Virus genome (UHGV): UHGV-0134334
DNA length: 12,902 nt
Direction: 5' to 3' (one strand)
DNA from: a virus
Positions within the stretch are counted from its first letter, which is position 1. The number at the start of each line of letters is the position of its first letter. This document shows, piece after piece, positions 25-10,483 of the stretch. Made by a program: the position numbers and the translations under genes. The notes under the pieces are model-generated. The model saw nothing but the letters and a program-made list of their open reading frames with translations. It had not been told where the DNA came from and ran no database searches.

Positions 25-767
25 CCCATCGCAAAGTGGAATTAACGCACGAGGGGAAACGTGTTTATTGGGCGCTAAAATCGTCGCTGGATACCCTGAA
101 CCAGGAAATTCTTGATATCAAAAATCAGGAGTTATCGGGAACGTTAACTCTGTATTCCCGGCCCTCTATCGCCCAATGCTGGTTGGTGCCCGCATTAGGT
201 GACTTTACACGCCGGTATCCGTCTATTTCGCTCACCGTGCTCACTGGTAATGACAACGTCAATCTGCAACGTGCCGGAATCGATTTGGCGATCTACTTTG
301 ATGATGCGCCGTCAGCGCAACTCACTCATCACTTTCTGATGGATGAAGAAATCCTGCCAGTATGTAGCCCGGAATACGCTCAAAGACATGCTTTAACCAA
401 CACGGTAATTAACCTGTGTCACTGTACGTTGCTCCATGACAGACAGGCATGGAGCAACGACTCCGGTACGGATGAATGGCATAGTTGGGCGCAACATTAT
501 GCGGTTAATTTGCCGACATCTTCTGGAATTGGCTTTGATCGTTCTGATTTAGCTGTTATTGCCGCGATGAATCATATTGGGGTGGCGATGGGAAGAAAAC
601 GCCTGGTACAAAAAAGGCTTGCCAGTGGTGAGCTCGTCGCGCCGTTTGGCGATATGACGGTGAAATGCCATCAGCATTATTACATCACCACATTACCGGG
701 CAGGCAGTGGCCAAAAATTGAAGCGTTTATTACCTGGCTAAGAGAACAGGTAAAAACCACTTCATAA
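25..767 (+). CDS. dsdC: LysR-family transcriptional regulator DsdC (D-serine deaminase activator), 5'-truncated by the window and adapter
   Basis: The ORF 36..767 translation matches my recollection of the E. coli DsdC C-terminal substrate-binding region. The frame stays open upstream to nt 25 (..SHRKVELTHEGKRVY..), so the GTG at 36 is internal. It lies convergent with torI at about 180 nt, as at the K-12 CPS-53/KplE1 junction. Confidence 0.8.
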
Positions 768-861
768 TGAATAAAACCACGAGTTCCTGGTGTGCCTTAT
801 TCGGCCTGCTAGTTCGAATTTAATTTACGGTTTTTATGTGGTTTTAGGGATAAACACAAGG

Positions 862-877
862 ATGGTGTCCCCTGCAG
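862..877 (-). other. Prophage attR core: 16-bp copy of the argW tRNA 3' end (CTGCAGGGGACACCAT on the minus strand)
   Basis: The minus strand reads CTGCAGGGGACACCAT, which is the end of the T-stem, the acceptor stem and CCA of tRNA-Arg (argW) as I recall it. Upstream tRNA sequence is absent, so this is a partial copy typical of an att core. Host DNA (dsdC) lies on one side and phage DNA (torI) on the other. Confidence 0.6.
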
Positions 878-950
878 ACATCTACTTGAAGCGGCAGGGG
901 ATTGATTGGAATGGTGTTTTTTAGATGTGAGAAATATTTTACCCGCTATT

Positions 951-1151
951 TTACCCATTGGCGCGGCTTAAGAGCTTATTTTTGAATTCACAATGGTCAC
1001 GATATAACCATCTTGCTCGCCCGTGGATAACTTTGGCTTTAGGCAGGTCGCCGGACTTAATCCGGTCGTAGATGAAGGTCTTACCGAAGCCAGTATCAGC
1101 CATGATGAATTTCAAATCAACCAGTGAATCAGGTTGTAGTTCGTGTTGCAT
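951..1151 (-). CDS. torI: Excisionase / recombination directionality factor TorI (KplE1-type Xis)
   Basis: The 66-aa ORF (MQHELQPDSLVDLKFIMADTGFGKTFIYDRIKSGDLPKAKVIHGRARWLY..) matches E. coli TorI in size and position, directly inside attR and convergent with dsdC. An RBS (GGAGA) sits 9 nt upstream of the ATG. Confidence 0.8.
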   Translation of the reverse strand: MQHELQPDSLVDLKFIMADTGFGKTFIYDRIKSGDLPKAKVIHGRARWLYRDHCEFKNKLLSRANG

Positions 1152-1666: not shown

Positions 1667-2050
1667 TTACCTCGCTGTCAGTTGCTTTGATTTCCGGTAG
1701 CCTGCCGCGTAAATGGCTACGTTTGGAAGACATACACCAGTTTCTGGTTGCTTATGTCCAAACTCATTCGCGTACACAATGGCCGCTCTCTCCAGATTGC
1801 GTCTGTATTCTTTCTGTTGCCAGATCACGTCCTGTGCCATGAACTTAATTGGCTTAGCGTCTTCTATGCGCTCAGGCGTTTCGTGAGTACCTTTAGCCTG
1901 AATCTGCGCTCTGCTTAGAGTAGGGCGGTGTAATACTTCTGAACTTATTGCTTCTTCGCGGGCCAGTACGCCGTTAGCTAATGCCTTTGCCTTTAAACGC
2001 TCACGACGACGAGAACGTGAATTGCCTTTGAACTGAGTTCTGCGTGTCAT
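1667..2050 (-). CDS. N-type transcription antitermination protein, P22 gp24-like
   Basis: The 127-aa ORF has an arginine-rich N-terminal motif (..GNSRSRRRERLKAK..) and a C-terminus (..VAIYAAGYRKSKQLTAR) closely resembling the P22 gene 24 product (..ALYAAGHRKSKQITAR). It sits downstream of pL with a GACAA-loop boxB in its leader. Confidence 0.75.
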   Translation of the reverse strand: MTRRTQFKGNSRSRRRERLKAKALANGVLAREEAISSEVLHRPTLSRAQIQAKGTHETPERIEDAKPIKFMAQDVIWQQKEYRRNLERAAIVYANEFGHKQPETGVCLPNVAIYAAGYRKSKQLTAR

Positions 2051-2457: not shown

Positions 2458-2610
2458 ATCTGTATGTTTTTTATATATATTTATTTTTTGCAGGGGTGTG
2501 TGGCTTGGGAGGTGATCGAGAGATCTGAATTGCGATGTTTAGTGAGTTGTATCTATTAATTTTCAAATAAATACAATTGGTTATGTGTTATTGGGTGAAG
2601 GGGATCGTGA

Positions 2611-2640
2611 GGCAAAGAAAACCCGGCGCTGAGGCCGGGT
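2611..2640 (-). terminator. Rho-independent terminator ending the cI-ORF145-ORF123 operon
   Basis: Minus-strand hairpin ACCCGGC-CUCAGC-GCCGGGU followed by UUUCUUUG, 7 nt after the ORF123 stop. Confidence 0.5.
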
Positions 2641-2646
2641 TGTGTG

Positions 2647-3018
2647 TTACTTAAGAACGAGTCCGTTTAAGGCATCAAGGATTTTGGAAACATAACTTCC
2701 AAAAATGTAGGCGCAAAATGCGAACACGAAACTGACAACGACCGCAGATGCCTTGATGGTGATTTTTGCTGAGCTAATGCTTGTCTCAATACCTGACAGA
2801 CGAGAATCTACAGATTTTATATCTGACTTTACTTCAGCGAGATCGCGCTTGATGTATTCAACATCAGACTCTAGCTTTGCAACTCTAGCCTCAAGCATGT
2901 TACCTCCGCCGTTTCCTCCACCATGCCGTGAGTATGCATCATCAGTGGAATAGTGTCCAATTGGGCGAGATATGTTTTGATTTGGACGAAGCTGAGCAAC
3001 CTTGTTATCTAAACTCAT
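2647..3018 (-). CDS. Small membrane protein with a Gly-rich motif (HGGGNGGGN), a coiled coil and a C-terminal transmembrane anchor; accessory gene occupying the position lambda uses for rexB
   Basis: 123-aa ORF with a hydrophobic C-terminal helix (..ASAVVVSFVFAFCAYIFGSYV..), last gene of the cI operon. A strong internal SD (GGAGGT) precedes the in-frame ATG at 2898, giving an alternative 83-aa form. Paralogous to ORF 9198..9533. Confidence 0.55.
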   Translation of the reverse strand: MSLDNKVAQLRPNQNISRPIGHYSTDDAYSRHGGGNGGGNMLEARVAKLESDVEYIKRDLAEVKSDIKSVDSRLSGIETSISSAKITIKASAVVVSFVFAFCAYIFGSYVSKILDALNGLVLK

Positions 3019-3442
3019 CGCGAACTGATCCTGTTATCTTCACGTCAAAAAACGAACTTTTTACATCAATTACTTCGCCTTTATCAGGATTAACCAGTGA
3101 TGCTCTGACTTCGAATATCCCAGGCTTGATAATTTTCACCCTTGGGAAGTTAATTCTCATAGAAGTTGATACGATGGTTTCTCCATCGTTGGCTTCTGCT
3201 ACCGTAAAAAACTTATGGTTGGAGTACAGTTTTGTGTCAATTGGTATCGGTATTTCTTGAGCATTGAAAACCTCAATGCCTATGGAATATTTTTTTGTAG
3301 CCTTAAGGCCGATAAAAAAAGCGCCAAATGATAGATCCACTTCATGGGAGTCTTTATCCATTTCATAGATAAGAACTGGAGTTACTGGGTTGCCTTCATC
3401 CATCGCAATCGGAATGATATAAGAAATACGTTCTTTAATCAT
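3005..3442 (-). CDS. Hypothetical soluble protein (145 aa); accessory gene occupying the position lambda uses for rexA
   Basis: ORF starts 8 nt downstream of the cI stop and overlaps ORF123 by 14 nt. AT-rich relative to cI. No transmembrane segment and no recognisable family. Confidence 0.55.
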   Translation of the reverse strand: MIKERISYIIPIAMDEGNPVTPVLIYEMDKDSHEVDLSFGAFFIGLKATKKYSIGIEVFNAQEIPIPIDTKLYSNHKFFTVAEANDGETIVSTSMRINFPRVKIIKPGIFEVRASLVNPDKGEVIDVKSSFFDVKITGSVRDEFR

Positions 3443-3449
3443 TTACGTG

Positions 3450-4166
<717 letters not shown>

Positions 4167-5078: not shown

Positions 5079-5970
5079 CATATCTAATCTAGCCGAAGCC
5101 AGAGAGGCCAGAAGGCTACAACAACCGCATCAAAGCAGCGGTAAGGGGTATGCCTTGCTGCACCGTAAAATTATGGATGTGCCGTTTTACAAGGACGCAG
5201 AAGCTGCGCATCTGTGGGTTCACTTAATCCTCAAAGCAAAGCATACGCCTGAGTATGTAATGACTGACGCAGGAGAAATTCTGGTAGGCAGAGGGAAGCT
5301 ACTTGGCGGTAGAAACTCTCTGGCGTTTGAAACAGGACTCAAACCAGATCGCGTTCAGTACCTGCTTAGAAAGTTCAAAAAACTCGGCATGATTGACTGG
5401 GTTTCACACGGTAGATTCTCAGTTTTCTCGGTAGAGAAATATGACGATTATCAGTCAAATTTTGTACCAGCAGATTACCAGCAAATTACCACCTCAAAGC
5501 CAGAAATACCAATGCCTGTAAGCAATACTGTACCAGCAGATTACCAGCAAATTACCACAGATAAAGAATATAATAATATTATCTCTAATACTGACGTATT
5601 AGAGAGTGCCACAGCAGACAAAAAGTCTGACAAGAAAAAACCTTCCGTTAGCTGTCAGGATATTGTCGATGCTTACCACGAAATCCTTCCTGAAGCGCCA
5701 AAAATCCGCGCACTGAATGACAAGCGTAAAAACCAGATCCGAACGTTCTGGCGCAAAGCCGGAGTGATAACCCGCCAGCTTGACGGGCATGGGTTCACGA
5801 TGCAGGACTGGAGAAATTATTTGAGCTACGTAGGCGAAAATTGCCGATGGATGTTCGAAGAACGCCCAAACCATCAACGCGGAACCGTCTGGCACAAAAA
5901 GGGATTTGATTTCCTGCTTAACGACAATACCTACCTGAAAGTTCGTGAGGGTGAACACGATGACCGATAA
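5071..5970 (+). CDS. Replication initiator, lambda O / P22 gp18-like, containing the origin iterons
   Basis: 299-aa ORF in the position of O/gene 18, after cII and before a DnaB-like helicase gene. It has internal iterons plus an AT-rich tract, and a strong RBS (AAGGAG). Confidence 0.6.
5464..5595. repeat. Candidate replication origin: four 12-bp iterons (CAGCAGATTACC / CAGCAAATTACC, twice) followed by an AT-rich tract
   Basis: The 29-bp segment GTACCAGCAGATTACCAGCAAATTACCAC occurs at 5464-5492 and again at 5530-5558, each holding two 12-mer sub-repeats. AGATAAAGAATATAATAATATTATCTCTAATA follows. The arrangement matches ori-lambda, which lies inside O. Confidence 0.55.
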
Positions 5971-6376
5971 TTTTTATGCGCCGCCCCATAGCATCGAGGC
6001 AGAGCAGGCGGTGATTGGTGGATTGCTTCTGGATGATGACAGCAGTGAGCGCGTCCAGAAAGTTCTGGCGATGCTGAAGCCTGATTCATTTTACAGCCGA
6101 CCACACAAAATCCTTTTCGAAGAGATAACCAGAATGCACCGGGAGCAAAAGCCAGTAGATGGCCTGACGCTTTTCGATGAACTGGAGCGTAAATCGTTAA
6201 CGGCGTCTGTTGGCGGTTTTGCTTATATCGCTGAGATCGCAAAGAACACGCCAAGCGCCGCAAACATCGTTGCCTATGCAATGCAGGTTCGCGAAACCGC
6301 AATGGAACGCTACGCCATCAACCGCATGACTGAAGCGACGGAATTGCTCTACGCGAAGGTGAGCAAGTGCAGGTAA
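5960..6376 (+). pseudogene. DnaB-family replicative helicase (P22 gene 12-like), N-terminal domain only, 3'-truncated
   Basis: The translation (..PPHSIEAEQAVIGGLLLDD..FYSRPHKILFEEI..SVGGFAYIAEIAKNTPSAANIVAYAMQVRE..) aligns with the N-terminal domain of E. coli DnaB. The ORF ends after about 138 aa with no Walker A or RecA-like domain. Start ATG at 5960 with RBS GAGGG. Confidence 0.7.
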
Positions 6377-6729
6377 AACGCACTGATGGAATATTCGGCA
6401 CACTTGGTAACTATGTTAGCCAATTATCTAACGGCAAGATGCTGAATAATGAGCAAGTCCAGGACTTAATCAACACCTCAAAACTGATGGCAAATACTGA
6501 AGGCCAAAAGTTTAATCAGCAAATGGATGATTATCTTTCAACTTATGGAGATTCTCTCCCCAGCGGACTAACTAAGCAATTGCAATCCAGAAAAGCCAAG
6601 CTGTATGAAGATATTCAGCAGCCTGCACAACAACAGAGCAATAACCAACAACCGACAAATACCCAACAGCAGCAGAGTCAATCCGGATCATATACCTCAA
6701 AATCAGGCATTCAATTTACGGTGGAATGA
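6367..6729 (+). CDS. Hypothetical Gln-rich protein, possibly the 3' remnant of a P22 gp20-like ejection protein gene
   Basis: 120-aa ORF beginning at the deletion junction and translationally coupled (ATGA overlap) to the downstream 708-aa ejection-protein-like gene. The assignment is by synteny only. Confidence 0.35.
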
Positions 6730-8852
6730 TGAAAGTAACTGCAAACGGTAAGACATTTACCTTCCCTGACGGTACGAGCACGGAAGATATTGGCTCCGCC
6801 ATTGATGAGTATTTTGCTGGTCAGGCTGTTCAGCAACAAACAGTTAATCAGGCCAATAATGAACAAGCACGTGAAGAACCATCATTGATGCAACAAGCTG
6901 GCGATTGGCTCACTGGTGGTCAAAGTGCAGGGCAAATTGCAGAACAGGCTGGTCGTGGTCTGGTAAACATACCATTTGACGTATTGCAGGGTGGCGCAAG
7001 TCTGATTAATGCAATCAGTCAGGGGCTTGGTGGGCCAAAAGTATTGGATGATGTCTATCGTCCAGTCGATCGACCGACAGACCCTTACGCGCAAGCCGGT
7101 GAAACAATTGGTGGGTATCTCCTGCCAATTGGCACAGCGGCAAAAGCTGCTGGAGCGCCAGCAAAGCTCGCTGGAGATATCGGTTCCGCAGGAAACATGA
7201 TTGCAGGTTCTCTTGCTGATGCTGCAAATCAGGAGGGCGACTTTGCACAAAATGCTGCCATTAACGGTGGTATCAATATTGGTGCTCAAGGCGTTCTTTC
7301 AGGTGTCGGGCGCGTTATTGCGCCAAGGGTTTCACAGGCTCTTGGTGGTGCAGCACTGAATTCTGCTAATGATGTTTCCAGGATGGCAAAGTCAGGTGCT
7401 GGGCGTCGGTCAATTGCCAGTCAGGCCGCTAATGTGTCCGAAGATGTAGCAAAAGCGGCTGAGTCTGCTGGAATTGATATAAACGCATTAACACCAGGAA
7501 TGCGATCTGGAAGTCGTGGAATTGCACAAGCTGAAGGCGCATTGGCATCAACACCAGGAATTGTTCAGGACGCCCATCAGGCAGCATTTAACGAAATATC
7601 ATCAAAGTTAAGTCGAAACCTTGATGAATTTGGGGCCGCATCTGGAACGGCATCAGAAAAAAGTGCGGCTATAAAACAAAGGATTCTTCAAAATCTTGAT
7701 CAGATGAAGGATGCCGAGCGCGCGGCATGGGATGACGTGCGGTCAACAATGCCAAATCAAAAAGCAAGAATGCTAAATGGTAATGCCGTTATTCAGGCAG
7801 AGCGATCTGCTGGCATACCACTTACTCCTGAAATGAAACAGTTTGTTCAGGCAAACAATCAAGGTGGAGTAACATTTGATGGCATGAAAGCATGGAGAGC
7901 GAAATTTGCTGATGCGGAGCAAAAATATAAGCGTAGCGGAGAGGCAAATGCGGCAAGGAGAGCAGGGGAAATACGCCGGGCAATTACTGATGATATGCGC
8001 ACAATGGCGGAAAACGGCGGATTTCTTGATGACTGGCAGAAAGCTAATGATCTGTCTAAAGCGAGGTTATCAGCACAAGAGAGTGCAGAGTCTGTTTTCG
8101 GGCGTGATTTGGCAACAGATGCACTGATTACGAATGGAGTAAAATCCCTTCAATCATCGTCAGCTAAAGGTCTTAATGGTCCTGCTGGGTTCCATTCTAT
8201 GATCCGCGCGCTGCCAGAATCAGAGCGTGTTCCTGCTATATCATCAATGTTGCAAGATGCTATCTCGCATGGTGTGCGTGGTGGCAAAGCTGATGCAGCA
8301 GGAATTAACCATATCGCAGGGATACTTACCCCACAAAATGTAAAAGCCATTAGCAGATATTCCTCAGATCTCGGAAGAATTGCTGATGCATATGGCACTC
8401 TTGCAAGAGCGGCAGTGAAACCTCAGCAGTATATTGAAAGAACAGGGAGAACTGCCAATGTACTACGCGATCTGGATGCTGGTTTATCCAACGTCACATC
8501 AACAGTGTTAAATGCAATTGCCAACTCAACATCAGGTGCCATTGTTGGTGGCGCTGGAGGGGGTATTGCAGGCGCTGCCGCGGGTGCTTTAGTTGGCGCC
8601 GGGTTAAAAGGTGCTGTATCTAAAATTGCCACCACGCGTAGCGGTCGATATGCGATAGAGAAAGCAGTTCAGGAAGCCACGAAAGCAGTAAGAGCTGGCG
8701 GAAGTAAAGAAGCATTAGCGGCGGCGGAACGCAGATTTATGGCAAATAAAGCCGCCGTAAAAGCAATACGTGATGCAGTTGGAAACGAAGAGTTCAATCG
8801 CTTAGCGAGGGCTGGCATTGTAGCGTCGCTAAGCGGAATAGCACAGGAGTAA
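6726..8852 (+). CDS. DNA ejection/injection (E-protein) family protein, P22 gp16-like
   Basis: 708-aa Ala/Gly-rich protein with a Gly/Ala-rich C-terminal segment (..[24 protein letters not shown]..). It sits immediately upstream of the immI-like region, as gene 16 does in P22-like genomes. The assignment is by synteny and composition, not by a verified alignment. Confidence 0.45.
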
Positions 8853-9176
8853 TTAATCATCCATGGATGGATTGAGCTTATCTCGTGTTGATGTGGCGAT
8901 TTGTCCTACATTCCTAAGCCAAGATTTCAAATCCTTGATATTGTCATTGATTTCATGAATATCTTCTTTTTTTAGTCTGTTAATATTATTCTCAATAATT
9001 TCAATGGATTGCTCAATATCAGATATAGTGAATGATAGTTTGTTCTTCTCATCTTTTATTGAGTTTTTAAGTGCTTCGTTCTCAGTCTTGAGGTCAGATA
9101 TCTTTTGTTTTAAAGATGCCAGTTGGTACTGAACCACAATGAGTGCGATAGCTATCACGATAACTGTTGTATACAC
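8853..9176 (-). CDS. Small membrane protein with an N-terminal transmembrane helix and coiled coil (107 aa); last gene of the mnt operon
   Basis: Hydrophobic N-terminus (MYTTVIVIAIALIVVQYQ) followed by heptad-rich sequence. RBS GGAG 7 nt upstream. AT-rich. Its stop abuts the stop of the convergent ejection-protein gene (TAATTA). Confidence 0.55.
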   Translation of the reverse strand: MYTTVIVIAIALIVVQYQLASLKQKISDLKTENEALKNSIKDEKNKLSFTISDIEQSIEIIENNINRLKKEDIHEINDNIKDLKSWLRNVGQIATSTRDKLNPSMDD

Positions 9177-9197: not shown

Positions 9198-9533
9198 CTA
9201 TTTGGTAACCAAGGCAATAAACAGCGGAGCAAGGATTGCAGATATCATGAGGGCGATAAGCCACTTCTGATTCTCGTCCATCTTATCTGCTAGGCGACGC
9301 TCCATTCCGTGCATGTCGCCACGGATGCCAATCAACTCTTTTCTAGTTTCTGATATTAGCTTTTCTTGGTTGGCGGCAATCGTTTCAATGCGGGTCATTC
9401 TACTGTTCATATCTGATCCTCCTCCATAGCCACCTCCATGTGCTGGCTCTTCTGAGTCTTCAATTCCGATGGGGGCAAATTCGCTATTCGGAAAAGGATT
9501 GTCAGCATCGTAAGCCAACTTCAACTTAGACAT
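9198..9533 (-). CDS. Small membrane protein with a Gly-rich motif (HGGGYGGGS), coiled coil and C-terminal transmembrane anchor; paralog of ORF 2647..3018
   Basis: 111-aa ORF with a C-terminal hydrophobic helix (..WLIALMISAILAPLFIALV..) and shared PIG..HGGGxGGG..M motifs with ORF123. The Gly codons (GGAGGAGGA) form an SD before the in-frame ATG. Overlaps the upstream ORF by 8 nt. Confidence 0.55.
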   Translation of the reverse strand: MSKLKLAYDADNPFPNSEFAPIGIEDSEEPAHGGGYGGGSDMNSRMTRIETIAANQEKLISETRKELIGIRGDMHGMERRLADKMDENQKWLIALMISAILAPLFIALVTK

Positions 9534-9891
9534 TGCTGTTTTTCTCCCTTAGATACCAGCTTAACACAACACCTGTGTTGTACTGCATAATGTATCCGCA
9601 ATGCTTGCAAATTACATGATAAGAGTAATTTATTGGGTTGAATGATTCATCTTCGTTTTTTATATATTCACCATAATGGGCATGCCTACCCATGATGTCT
9701 TTTCCATTATCCTGATTTACAAATTGAACTTGAGGGACAACCATTTCAGACTGCCCGCACATTGGGCATTCGTCTGGAACACCTTTAGCTCTCAAGAAAG
9801 AGTCGAGAACCTTTGTAGTTATAGACGATAGCGCCTTGCGATATTCAGCCTCTCGCAGTTGATCGTCTGAGTATCCTGAATTGTCACTCAT
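9526..9891 (-). CDS. Zinc-ribbon protein (two CxxC pairs), translationally coupled to mnt (121 aa)
   Basis: CPMCGQ and CKHCGY motifs about 50 aa apart. The start codon overlaps the mnt stop (ATGA). No recognisable family. Confidence 0.55.
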   Translation of the reverse strand: MSDNSGYSDDQLREAEYRKALSSITTKVLDSFLRAKGVPDECPMCGQSEMVVPQVQFVNQDNGKDIMGRHAHYGEYIKNEDESFNPINYSYHVICKHCGYIMQYNTGVVLSWYLREKNSNV

Positions 9892-10139
9892 TTTTCATCC
9901 TTACCATACATGGTCTTTAGCGTCTCAACATCGCGTTCAAGATCTATCAATCGTGATGCTATAGTTGCAAGGTCTAGTGCTTGAATGTGTTTATTTTTTT
10001 CGGTCCACGCTTCAAGTGCCGCGACCATCTCAGCATTTAATGAACGAGAATTAGCCTCAGCCAGTTCAATAAGACGTTCCTTTATCTCTACAGGAAGCCT
10101 CAGATTCACTTGAGGGTTTTTGTACTTACGATCAGACAT
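9888..10139 (-). CDS. mnt: Mnt-like ribbon-helix-helix repressor (Arc/MetJ superfamily)
   Basis: The 83-aa ORF is the same length as P22 Mnt. Its N-terminal region (..NLRLPVEIKERLIELAEANSRSLNAEMVAAL..) resembles the Mnt/Arc RHH motif and it has a C-terminal coiled coil. It is divergent from arc-ant. Confidence 0.7.
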   Translation of the reverse strand: MSDRKYKNPQVNLRLPVEIKERLIELAEANSRSLNAEMVAALEAWTEKNKHIQALDLATIASRLIDLERDVETLKTMYGKDEK

Positions 10140-10174
10140 CGGCGCATCCTGAATAATTTTTTACCACAGGATAT

Positions 10175-10214
10175 GTAGGTATCTATTGACTATCAATGCG
10201 TACCTAAATACTAT
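10175..10214. promoter_or_regulatory. Divergent mnt/arc-ant promoter region with an imperfect palindromic operator
   Basis: Palindrome GTAGGTA-tct-ATTGA-cta-TCAAT-gcg-TACCTA (10175-10207). It overlaps a plus-strand -35 TTGACT (10186-10191) and -10 TACTAT (10209-10214), 17-bp spacer, upstream of arc. Confidence 0.45.
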
Positions 10215-10385: not shown

Positions 10386-10418
10386 TTCGCTTGGATGCGG
10401 CAAAGAAATCAAAACAGT

Positions 10419-10450
10419 GAAGCCCCAACTGCGGGAACAGTCAGGGCTTC
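10419..10450. other. Stable hairpin in the arc-ant intergenic region; possible sar-like antisense RNA terminator or attenuator
   Basis: GAAGCCC-(18 nt)-GGGCTTC inverted repeat. On the minus strand it is followed by a T-rich tract (ACTGTTTTGATTTCTTTG). Confidence 0.3.
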
Positions 10451-10483
10451 GGTATCGTAAAACCACGCATAGGAATTAACGAC

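Follow-up and report, generated by a model that had tools for sequence, protein, structure and literature searches.

Two small open reading frames (ORFs) of the virus genome UHGV-0134334 raise the question of why a prophage without lysis genes still carries a pair of intact holin-like genes, and of what these genes encode. The window analysed here is the whole stretch of 12,902 nucleotides (nt), which, judged from its sequence, is a deleted and defective P22-like/lambdoid prophage of Escherichia coli. The two genes are named A (ORF 2647..3018, minus strand) and B (ORF 9198..9533, minus strand), and the term cassette refers to such an XhlA-like gene together with its partner gene. The original prediction described A and B as divergent paralogs of a tail-anchored, coiled-coil protein with a glycine motif, each with a possible internal start. 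The comparisons below suggest that both genes belong to a large XhlA-like family, that each probably uses two in-frame starts, and that the cassettes are placed behind prophage repressor genes, where a role in the lysogen could be expected.

Two homologous genes of an XhlA-like family

The long product predicted for A has 123 amino acids (aa) and matches phrog_6136 (3.6e-46) and phrog_6324 (6.6e-15), and that of B has 111 aa and matches phrog_6324 (6.7e-29). The products of both cassettes are labelled hypothetical proteins in RefSeq. A and B share the same layout, with a disordered N-terminus, a glycine run, a Met, a heptad helix of about 50 aa and a single C-terminal transmembrane (TM) segment. 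Both contain PIG and HGGGxGGG followed by the Met, which is M41 in A and M42 in B. The heptad periodicity extends over 50-51 aa after this Met, and hydrophobic residues occupy 93% of the a/d positions in A and 67% in B. One hydrophobic segment was found in each protein, at residues 92-110 in both (Kyte-Doolittle values of 2.1 for A and 2.6 for B). In B this segment is LIALMISAILAPLFIALVT (9204..9260, minus strand), which is invariant in the family alignment; in A it is encoded at 2689..2745 (minus strand) and is followed by the conserved tail SKILDALNGLVLK. The structure of B was also modelled by AlphaFold2 with the family alignment, and the model was used for the boundary between disorder and helix only, as its overall confidence was low (predicted local distance difference test, pLDDT, of 61). 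Residues 1-40 were disordered, and residues 41-110 formed a single helix. Since the helix starts at residue 41, the structured part of the protein appears to begin at the internal Met.

The pairwise BLASTP comparison of A and B was weak (23% identity, E=0.004), and the profiles of the two families could be aligned over the glycine run, the Met and the helix (hhalign, 94% probability, E=1e-7). On these alignments, and with phrog_6324 matched by both, A and B are homologous, and their likeness is more than compositional, as the proposal of paralogy with a common architecture implied. The PIG motif, which had been counted among the shared features, was rejected as a mark of common ancestry. It is not above chance (shuffle P=0.13), and the homology begins at the glycine run. 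With their unrelated partner genes, the two copies are mosaic relatives rather than the products of a duplication in situ.

These profile comparisons place A and B in the XhlA family, in a large and uncharacterised branch from Gram-negative bacteria. The homologues of both are named 'hemolysin XhlA (family)' by NCBI. Many relatives of B carry PF10779, and this domain is present in homologues with 70-75% identity to the B core. The earlier impression of an XhlA-like shape is therefore borne out by the relatives, with A and B themselves below the Pfam cut-off; the membership of both would hold at the superfamily or clade level only. Other weak matches include the PHROG 'holin' family phrog_689 (1.2e-5) and the 'hemolysin' family phrog_1193. 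An exhaustive profile search gave a family of 2,666 cluster representatives at a threshold of E<=1e-3, of which 267 remain at E<=1e-10. A glycine run lies within the first 60 residues in 109/124 small proteins among the top hits, and it is usually followed by M (or L/V), the conserved block xxRVAKLESDVEYIKRD and the C-terminal TM segment, in this order. The N-terminal 20-60 residues occur across the family in many unrelated versions.

The conserved block of A, RVAKLESDVEYIKRD (2842..2889, residues 44-59), is near-identical from the enterics to Vibrio, Shewanella, Pseudomonas and the Alphaproteobacteria; whereas the remaining coiled coil and the TM segment are variable. Such conservation is unusual for a plain coiled coil and suggests a specific binding surface or target.

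Comparison with XhlA of the Bacillus subtilis element PBSX (PF10779) also showed structural similarities, including the N-terminal coiled-coil helix and the one C-terminal TM segment. The predicted short isoforms of B and A (70 and 83 aa) fit the XhlA size of about 70-90 aa with its coiled-coil helix and single C-terminal TM segment, and the long isoforms add 40-41 residues to this XhlA-like core. The canonical XhlA gene belongs to a late lysis cassette that also encodes the holin XhlB and the amidase XlyA; whereas A and B are located in lysogeny-repressor operons with a soluble partner. Compared with XhlA, they also have an additional variable N-terminal peptide, a glycine run and a second start.

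Probable internal starts within the glycine codons

The glycine codons of both genes had been read as a Shine-Dalgarno (SD) sequence a few nt before an in-frame ATG. This reading is correct for A and B, and the arrangement appears to be conserved across lineages. In B, the SD sequence GGAGGAGGA (9417..9425, minus strand) consists of three Gly codons and is followed by TCAGAT (6 nt) and the internal ATG (9410..9408, codon 42). The predicted short isoform of 70 aa (9198..9410, minus strand) corresponds to the canonical XhlA-like core. In A, the Gly codons contain GGAGGT (2902..2907, minus strand), followed by AAC (3 nt) and the internal ATG (2898..2896, codon 41), with a predicted short isoform of 83 aa (2647..2898, minus strand). 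The pairing with the anti-SD sequence amounts to -10.1 (A) and -12.1 (B) kcal/mol at the internal starts, compared with -4.1 (A) and -8.4 (B) kcal/mol at the long starts and a median of -5.6 kcal/mol for 13 other genes of the window. Folding of the 101 nt of RNA around each internal start revealed no structure beyond that of shuffled sequences (z = 0.05 and 0.67), and thus no occlusion and no sdi-like hairpin.

The DNA of the relatives was collapsed to 41 lineages with <80% nucleotide identity around the site, which are not fully independent of each other. The codon GGA occupies the Gly position -4 in 26/37 cases (70%), compared with 12-26% at codons -9 to -5 and 0/26 at -2/-1; the background in the same loci is 18%, or 8.4% for the first codon of a Gly-Gly pair. 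In 25 lineages the sequence GGAGG lies at -12, which leaves a spacer of 7 nt. When the in-frame positions -15, -12 and -9 are taken together, 30/41 lineages have GGAGG, compared with an expectation of 12.8 or 6.4, and a count of 30 was not reached in any of 200,000 simulations. The codon aligned to the internal start is ATG in 34 of the 41 lineages, TTG in 4 and GTG in 2. Six extra lineages without Met were also compared: four have TTG and one GTG, and each of these five carries GGAGG at -12; in the sixth, the codon is CTC and GGAGG is lost as well. TTG is used in 8/9 lineages with Leu at this position (background 19%, P=1.4e-5), and GTG in 4/4 lineages with Val (background 22.5%, P=0.003).

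The CTC lineage (L135, 374..724) is without GGAGG and without an overlapping partner gene, and a gene with a SocA_Panacea domain lies nearby. A joint loss of the internal start and of the cassette organisation is possible in this lineage.

Natural homologues of 66-72 aa exist, and some database entries begin at the internal ATG. The annotation of the family is inconsistent: the same gene is called either in the long form (100-117 aa) or from the internal ATG (66-77 aa) with the long frame open. Examples are L001 4004..4216 (Klebsiella phage ST101-KPC2phi6.1), P0014, P0019, P0051 and others. Gene callers are evidently drawn by the internal SD sequence. Short-only derivatives are found among L065, L067, L069 (about 20 nt upstream of the match), L051 and L064, some with an in-frame TGA just before GGATCAGGA-ATG. 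Others are stand-alone genes of 70-72 aa that follow a terminator-like hairpin and have no partner gene, and one stand-alone form from Klebsiella is present on >400 contigs.

The long form is also conserved. In 40/40 lineages the reading frame continues without interruption for at least 26 codons (median 42) on the upstream side of the internal start. The long start adjoins or overlaps the stop codon of a preceding ORF on the same strand, with offsets of -3 to +23 nt. Because it abuts the stop codon of the partner, the long start is expected to be translationally coupled. Between B-type lineages with a synonymous divergence (dS) of about 1, the ratio of nonsynonymous to synonymous substitution (dN/dS) is 0.07-0.25 in the N-terminal extension, 0.03-0.05 in the core and 0.05-0.08 in the partner. 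These values indicate that the long form is also real and under purifying selection. Two isoforms are expected, since the internal start is conserved and the long form is selected as well, and the comparative evidence makes a dual start in both genes probable.

A parallel with the dual starts of the lambda holin and antiholin had been drawn by the original prediction. It holds for the presence of two in-frame starts, which the comparison of lineages supports, and is otherwise formal. As in lambda S105/S107, P22 gp13 and phage 21 S68/S71, one gene has two in-frame starts served by SD sequences, which would give N-terminal isoforms, and the lambda S type is also a small phage-encoded holin-like membrane protein. 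However, the starts are 40 (A) and 41 (B) codons apart rather than 2-3, and there is one TM segment rather than two or three. Moreover, the extension in A and B is a disordered peptide, the long start is coupled to a partner, no sdi-like hairpin was found, and the operon is that of a repressor. The isoforms of lambda S differ by a charged residue that controls the topology of TM1, and an RNA stem-loop sets the ratio of the two starts.

Cassettes behind prophage repressors and their exchange

Cassette A (2647..3442, minus strand) lies behind the lambda-type cI repressor gene (3450..4163, minus strand), which heads the operon and has HTH_3 and Peptidase_S24 domains in the 97%-identical context of L125. 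Its partner gene (3005..3442, minus strand; phrog_5893) encodes a soluble all-beta protein of 145 aa, predicted as an immunoglobulin (Ig)-like sandwich (pLDDT 86.6), and the stop codon overlaps the long start of A by 14 nt. The order of the operon is cI, the 145-aa gene, A and the terminator, with junctions that are 7 nt or overlapping, and A thus lies between cI and the N-like gene (1667..2050, minus strand). An intrinsic terminator (2620..2641, minus strand) ends the operon. The terminator and its flank (2560..2641) share 90-96% identity with the immunity-region terminator of many lambda-immunity and Stx phages, including HK542, HK244, H-19B and BP-4795; the identity is 96% for HK542 and HK244. 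Since conserved cI and t_imm flanks are found on either side, cassette A occupies the rexAB position and appears to be a clean replacement of rexAB.

Cassette B (9198..9891, minus strand) lies behind a Mnt-type gene of the Arc family (9888..10139, minus strand; PF03869, 3.1e-10), which heads the operon and overlaps the partner start by 4 nt. The partner gene (9526..9891, minus strand; phrog_4293) encodes a soluble protein of 121 aa with four invariant Cys residues of the zinc-ribbon type, and its stop overlaps the long start of B by 8 nt. A promoter-like site at the Pmnt position (10168..10196, minus strand), a consensus match only, is divergent from a Pant-like site (10186..10214, plus strand). 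On the other side of the cassette is the DNA-transfer gene of phrog_770, so that B is in the slot of P22 sieA. The separate operons assigned to A (cI) and B (mnt) are confirmed, as is their placement outside lysis cassettes.

The same setting was found in other lineages. The gene directly upstream of the partner (n=32 lineages) is of the Peptidase_S24 type (cI/LexA) in 13, Phage_CI_repr in 3, Arc/Mnt in 7 and a Mu-repressor-type helix-turn-helix in 1, and in about 75% of the lineages, spread over the Gammaproteobacteria, the cassette is directly behind a prophage maintenance repressor. These repressor-linked lineages include Pseudoalteromonas, Shewanella, Pseudomonas and Vibrio, and two metagenomic lineages (L133 and L136) have the same order of repressor, partner and gene. 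The order seen for cassette A, with the two genes behind an S24 repressor, occurs in at least 13 lineages. The cassette is followed by a terminator, by a gene in convergent orientation or by small unrelated ORFs. No holin, endolysin or spanin gene was found beside the gene in about 34 lineages, and a lysis-cassette context was rejected. Cassette A is present at full length in 14/5,426 complete E. coli genomes, including enteropathogenic E. coli (EPEC) E2348/69 (E2348C_RS13570/RS13575), and cassette B in 9/5,426. The carriers of cassette B include E. coli 702/18 and the ST131 strain 4993. Because the cassette is co-oriented with the maintenance repressor gene and overlaps it, it is presumably expressed in lysogens, and on the gene order this is very likely.

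An upstream partner ORF of 83-153 aa accompanies almost every family member. There are two main partner families, one of them the zinc-ribbon type of about 120 aa with four invariant Cys residues, and both partner types are found with both core types (L014, L094, L030). The confident prediction of an Ig-like sandwich points to a binding fold in the 145-aa partner, rather than to an enzyme. A sequence-profile search of the PDB gave weak matches of this family to Ig domains (E=0.005-0.1), and nothing for the zinc-ribbon partner family. The zinc-ribbon partner (9526..9891, minus strand) also showed sub-threshold similarity to Lar restriction-alleviation proteins (TIGR03655, E=0.0034; Pfam Lar_restr_allev, E=0.56), which probably reflects only the CxxC...CxxC ribbon.

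Two chimeras show where the cassettes are joined. A relative from Escherichia marmotae (L125) is 97-100% identical to the window across the partner and the N-terminal peptide of A, and the identity collapses within the glycine run, about 20 nt before the internal start. In a relative from Citrobacter (L126), the DNA is unrelated to B upstream and 80-93% identical from CATGGAGG on. Since these two reciprocal chimeras switch in the glycine run, the core appears to move as a module with its own SD sequence and start codon. The phage epsilon34 provides another core swap: gp45 is a homologue of the 145-aa partner, and gp44 shares the N-terminal half of A (61% identity over residues 1-67); whereas its C-terminal core differs from that of A. 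The repressor that precedes genes 45 and 44 is a different one. In 2008 the position of the two genes was described as 'like rexA and rexB', and no matches to them were found in the databases (PMC2629481).

The remainder of the window is consistent with a deleted prophage. The left end (36..1151) contains the 3' end of a LysR-type gene, which we take to be dsdC-like, and a TorI-like excisionase gene; no integrase and no tRNA gene were found in the window. This end resembles an attachment region of the KplE1/CPS-53 type, though the body of the prophage is P22/lambda-like. The cro, cII and replication genes are located to the right of cI in window order. They are followed by a DnaB-like ORF with the N-terminal domain only (5945..6376; PF00772) and by the tail end of a gp20-like ejection-protein gene, of which the last ~120 codons remain (6367..6729; phrog_917). 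The deletion junction lies within 5945..6729, where the DnaB-like remnant is fused into the end of the gp20-type gene. The nin, lysis, head and most tail genes are gone; both lysogeny-operon cassettes are kept intact. A gp16-type DNA-transfer gene follows (6726..8852; phrog_770).

An hkcB-like gene of 107 aa (8853..9176, minus strand; phrog_5962) is located 21 nt downstream of B, and its product mirrors the layout of B, with an N-terminal TM segment followed by a coiled coil. This gene recurs in the slot between gene 16 and mnt in L024, L027 and L111, as epsilon34 gene 14, and as hkcB of HK620 and CUS-3. It was considered as a third component of the cassette and rejected, because it is missing from L126 and L128 and tracks the slot rather than the cassette. 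To the right of the mnt-type gene are arc, the sar RNA, ant and the tailspike gene. The sar antisense RNA (10416..10482, minus strand; RF00262, 76.6 bits) lies between arc and ant, and its presence indicates an intact P22-type immI regulatory region beside cassette B.

Possible roles of the cassette in the lysogen

The positions of the two cassettes, in the slots of RexAB and sieA, and their architecture of a soluble binding fold with a holin-like protein suggest that the most likely role is a lysogen-expressed inner-membrane defence. The interval between cI and N is a hotspot for abortive-infection genes, such as RexAB and BstA (PMC8585504), and the prophage-expressed slot between gene 16 and mnt holds sieA in P22 (PMC10883804). 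The account favoured here is that an XhlA-like dual-start gene forms a mobile repressor-operon cassette with a RexAB-like role in defence, and we regard it as evenly balanced between right and wrong. A defence function as such, argued by analogy from genomic position and architecture only, is given slightly less than an even chance.

In the favoured account, the cassette would be a mobile passenger in the operon of the prophage maintenance repressor, with A in place of lambda rexAB and B in place of P22 sieA. The long start, coupled to the partner, would add a disordered and fast-evolving peptide of ~40 aa and a glycine linker, and the internal start, with its SD sequence in the Gly codons, would give a short form that is the bare XhlA core. 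The module of core, SD sequence and start codon appears to be exchanged between cassettes by recombination at the glycine run. Expressed in the lysogen, the cassette might act as an abortive-infection or exclusion module like RexAB. The soluble partner would sense or regulate by way of the N-terminal peptide that the long isoform carries; the short isoform would be the bulk oligomerising, holin-like subunit and would perturb the inner membrane when triggered. Premature hole formation through the holin of an incoming phage has been proposed for the lactococcal AbiZ. Because XhlA cooperates with a holin in PBSX, a similar variant could be considered here, in which a pre-loaded XhlA-like protein would trigger early hole formation by the holin of the incoming phage.

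Comparison with RexA and RexB also showed similarities to cassette A. Both comprise two genes after cI that are co-transcribed with it and located before the immunity terminator, and both encode one soluble and one membrane protein. The lambda rexB gene has a separate promoter. The membrane component could therefore receive extra, partner-independent expression in both systems, by the internal start here and by the separate promoter of rexB. The ratio of RexA to RexB matters in lambda (PMC8585504). However, the gene orders and sizes differ, RexB is polytopic whereas A is a single-pass tail-anchored protein, and no PADLOC, Pfam or NCBIfam match to RexA or RexB was found in A, B or their partners. 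Cassette B shares with P22 SieA an inner-membrane product and the same prophage-expressed slot. SieA is a single gene product of about 160 aa with three TM segments that targets the gp16/gp20 conduit; whereas B has 111 aa and one TM segment, and the Pfam and PHROG scans gave no match of B to the SieA family (types A-C). Moreover, the cassette is also found in phages other than those of the P22 type.

Several observations weigh against the favoured account. The PF10779 scores of A (19.3 bits, E=0.0013) and B (20.7 bits, E=0.00047) do not reach the gathering threshold of 34.7 bits. GGAGG is absent from about a quarter of the lineages (Shewanella, Pseudoalteromonas, two alphaproteobacteria, L092, L115 and L127), in which the internal start may be weak or unused, and part of the signal is intrinsic, as poly-Gly necessarily gives a G-rich, SD-like RNA. 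Co-variation of the N-terminus with the partner does not discriminate globally (Mantel values of 0.27 for both partner-to-N-terminus and partner-to-core), and the pair L030/L111 is a counter-example to a partner-specific N-terminal peptide; any such specificity would be suggested by the individual chimeras only. A constitutive holin-like core made from a strong SD sequence must be assumed to be non-toxic in lysogens. Scans of both proteins and their partners with PADLOC and NCBIfam gave nothing significant, and a literature search by protein accession and locus tag gave no papers on A or B. The literature on XhlA, SieA, rexAB and holin-like defence provides context, and no description of the A/B family was found in it.

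Among the alternatives, the cassette might keep the DNA of superinfecting phages from crossing the inner membrane, in the manner of SieA, HK97 gp15 or T4 Imm, and would then neither kill nor permeabilise the cell. B is located exactly at the P22 sieA site, adjoining the ejection-protein genes 16 and 20, and the products are small inner-membrane proteins made from a prophage. However, nearly the whole protein is predicted to lie on the cytoplasmic side, with only 1-13 residues past the TM segment, which fits poorly with interference at a periplasmic conduit. The same cassette is also carried by siphovirus-type, Mu-type and lambdoid prophages, whose injection machineries are unrelated, and no similarity to SieA is seen. 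Entry exclusion is therefore considered unlikely.

A second possibility is that the protein is an accessory of the lysis of the prophage itself, as XhlA is for the holin XhlB in PBSX, and tunes the timing of lysis after induction. The weak matches to XhlA, phrog_689 and phrog_1193 are in its favour, as is the function of XhlA in PBSX, where lysis needs XhlA together with XhlB and XlyA (PMC5589764). Such a role is quite improbable: the gene is beside a holin, endolysin or spanin in 0 of about 34 lineages, it is transcribed with lysogeny repressors in operons that are off on induction, and the prophage of this window has no lysis genes and yet keeps both cassettes intact.

The cassette might also be an addiction or stabilisation module like a toxin-antitoxin (TA) pair, in which the partner would neutralise a membrane toxin, and the module would either stabilise the prophage or tie the loss of the repressor to cell death. 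As in type II TA operons, a small soluble gene comes first, with overlapping stop and start; the second product is membrane-active and holin-like, and the linkage to the repressor genes is tight. Partnerless core genes are nevertheless frequent and found in many places, among them hundreds of Klebsiella contigs. The short isoform is without the presumed neutralisation peptide and yet has the stronger SD sequence, and the partners have no DNA-binding or antitoxin-family signatures. An addiction role is hence considered quite improbable. Last, it is very unlikely that only the long ORF is translated, with the SD-like run as a by-product of the poly-Gly linker and the Met as the first residue of the helix: every GGN-GGN run is rich in G and resembles an SD sequence, and the glycine run is kept at the protein level even in the roughly 25% of lineages without the motif, but the GGA preference is specific to position -4 (70%, compared with 0/26 at -2/-1 and 12-26% elsewhere), the Met is replaced by TTG (8/9) or GTG (4/4) with the lone non-start codon coinciding with the loss of GGAGG, the motif is retained between lineages despite a dS of about 1, and stand-alone short genes occur.

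The dual-start cassette is thus well supported as a sequence feature; the XhlA superfamily is known, and the cassette with its place in repressor operons appears to be without an earlier description. The favoured account could also be extended to a widespread new class of prophage defence in repressor operons across the Proteobacteria, which is put forward here as a tentative idea with less than an even chance. Such systems would combine a swappable soluble sensor, for which the Ig-like sandwich, the zinc ribbon and several other types are candidates, with an XhlA-like effector to which it is linked by the short N-terminal peptide; the balance between a long isoform coupled to the sensor and a free short isoform would set the trigger for membrane permeabilisation, and the glycine run with its SD sequence would be the joint for shuffling sensors and effectors.

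If the two starts are used as predicted, the family would be an unusually clean natural case of dual coding, in which the codons of a poly-Gly linker double as the ribosome-binding site for an internal start, and in which selection can be seen at synonymous sites and in the use of TTG or GTG where the Met has been lost. One consequence concerns annotation, as the databases call the long or the short ORF inconsistently. Cassette A in EPEC E2348/69 is a ready experimental system. If the account of the cassette is also correct, prophage immunity operons would have a further and very frequent passenger, which would join RexAB, SieA/SieB and BstA among the few membrane defence modules expressed in lysogens, with thousands of 50%-identity clusters in the enterics, Vibrio, Shewanella, Pseudomonas and some Alphaproteobacteria.

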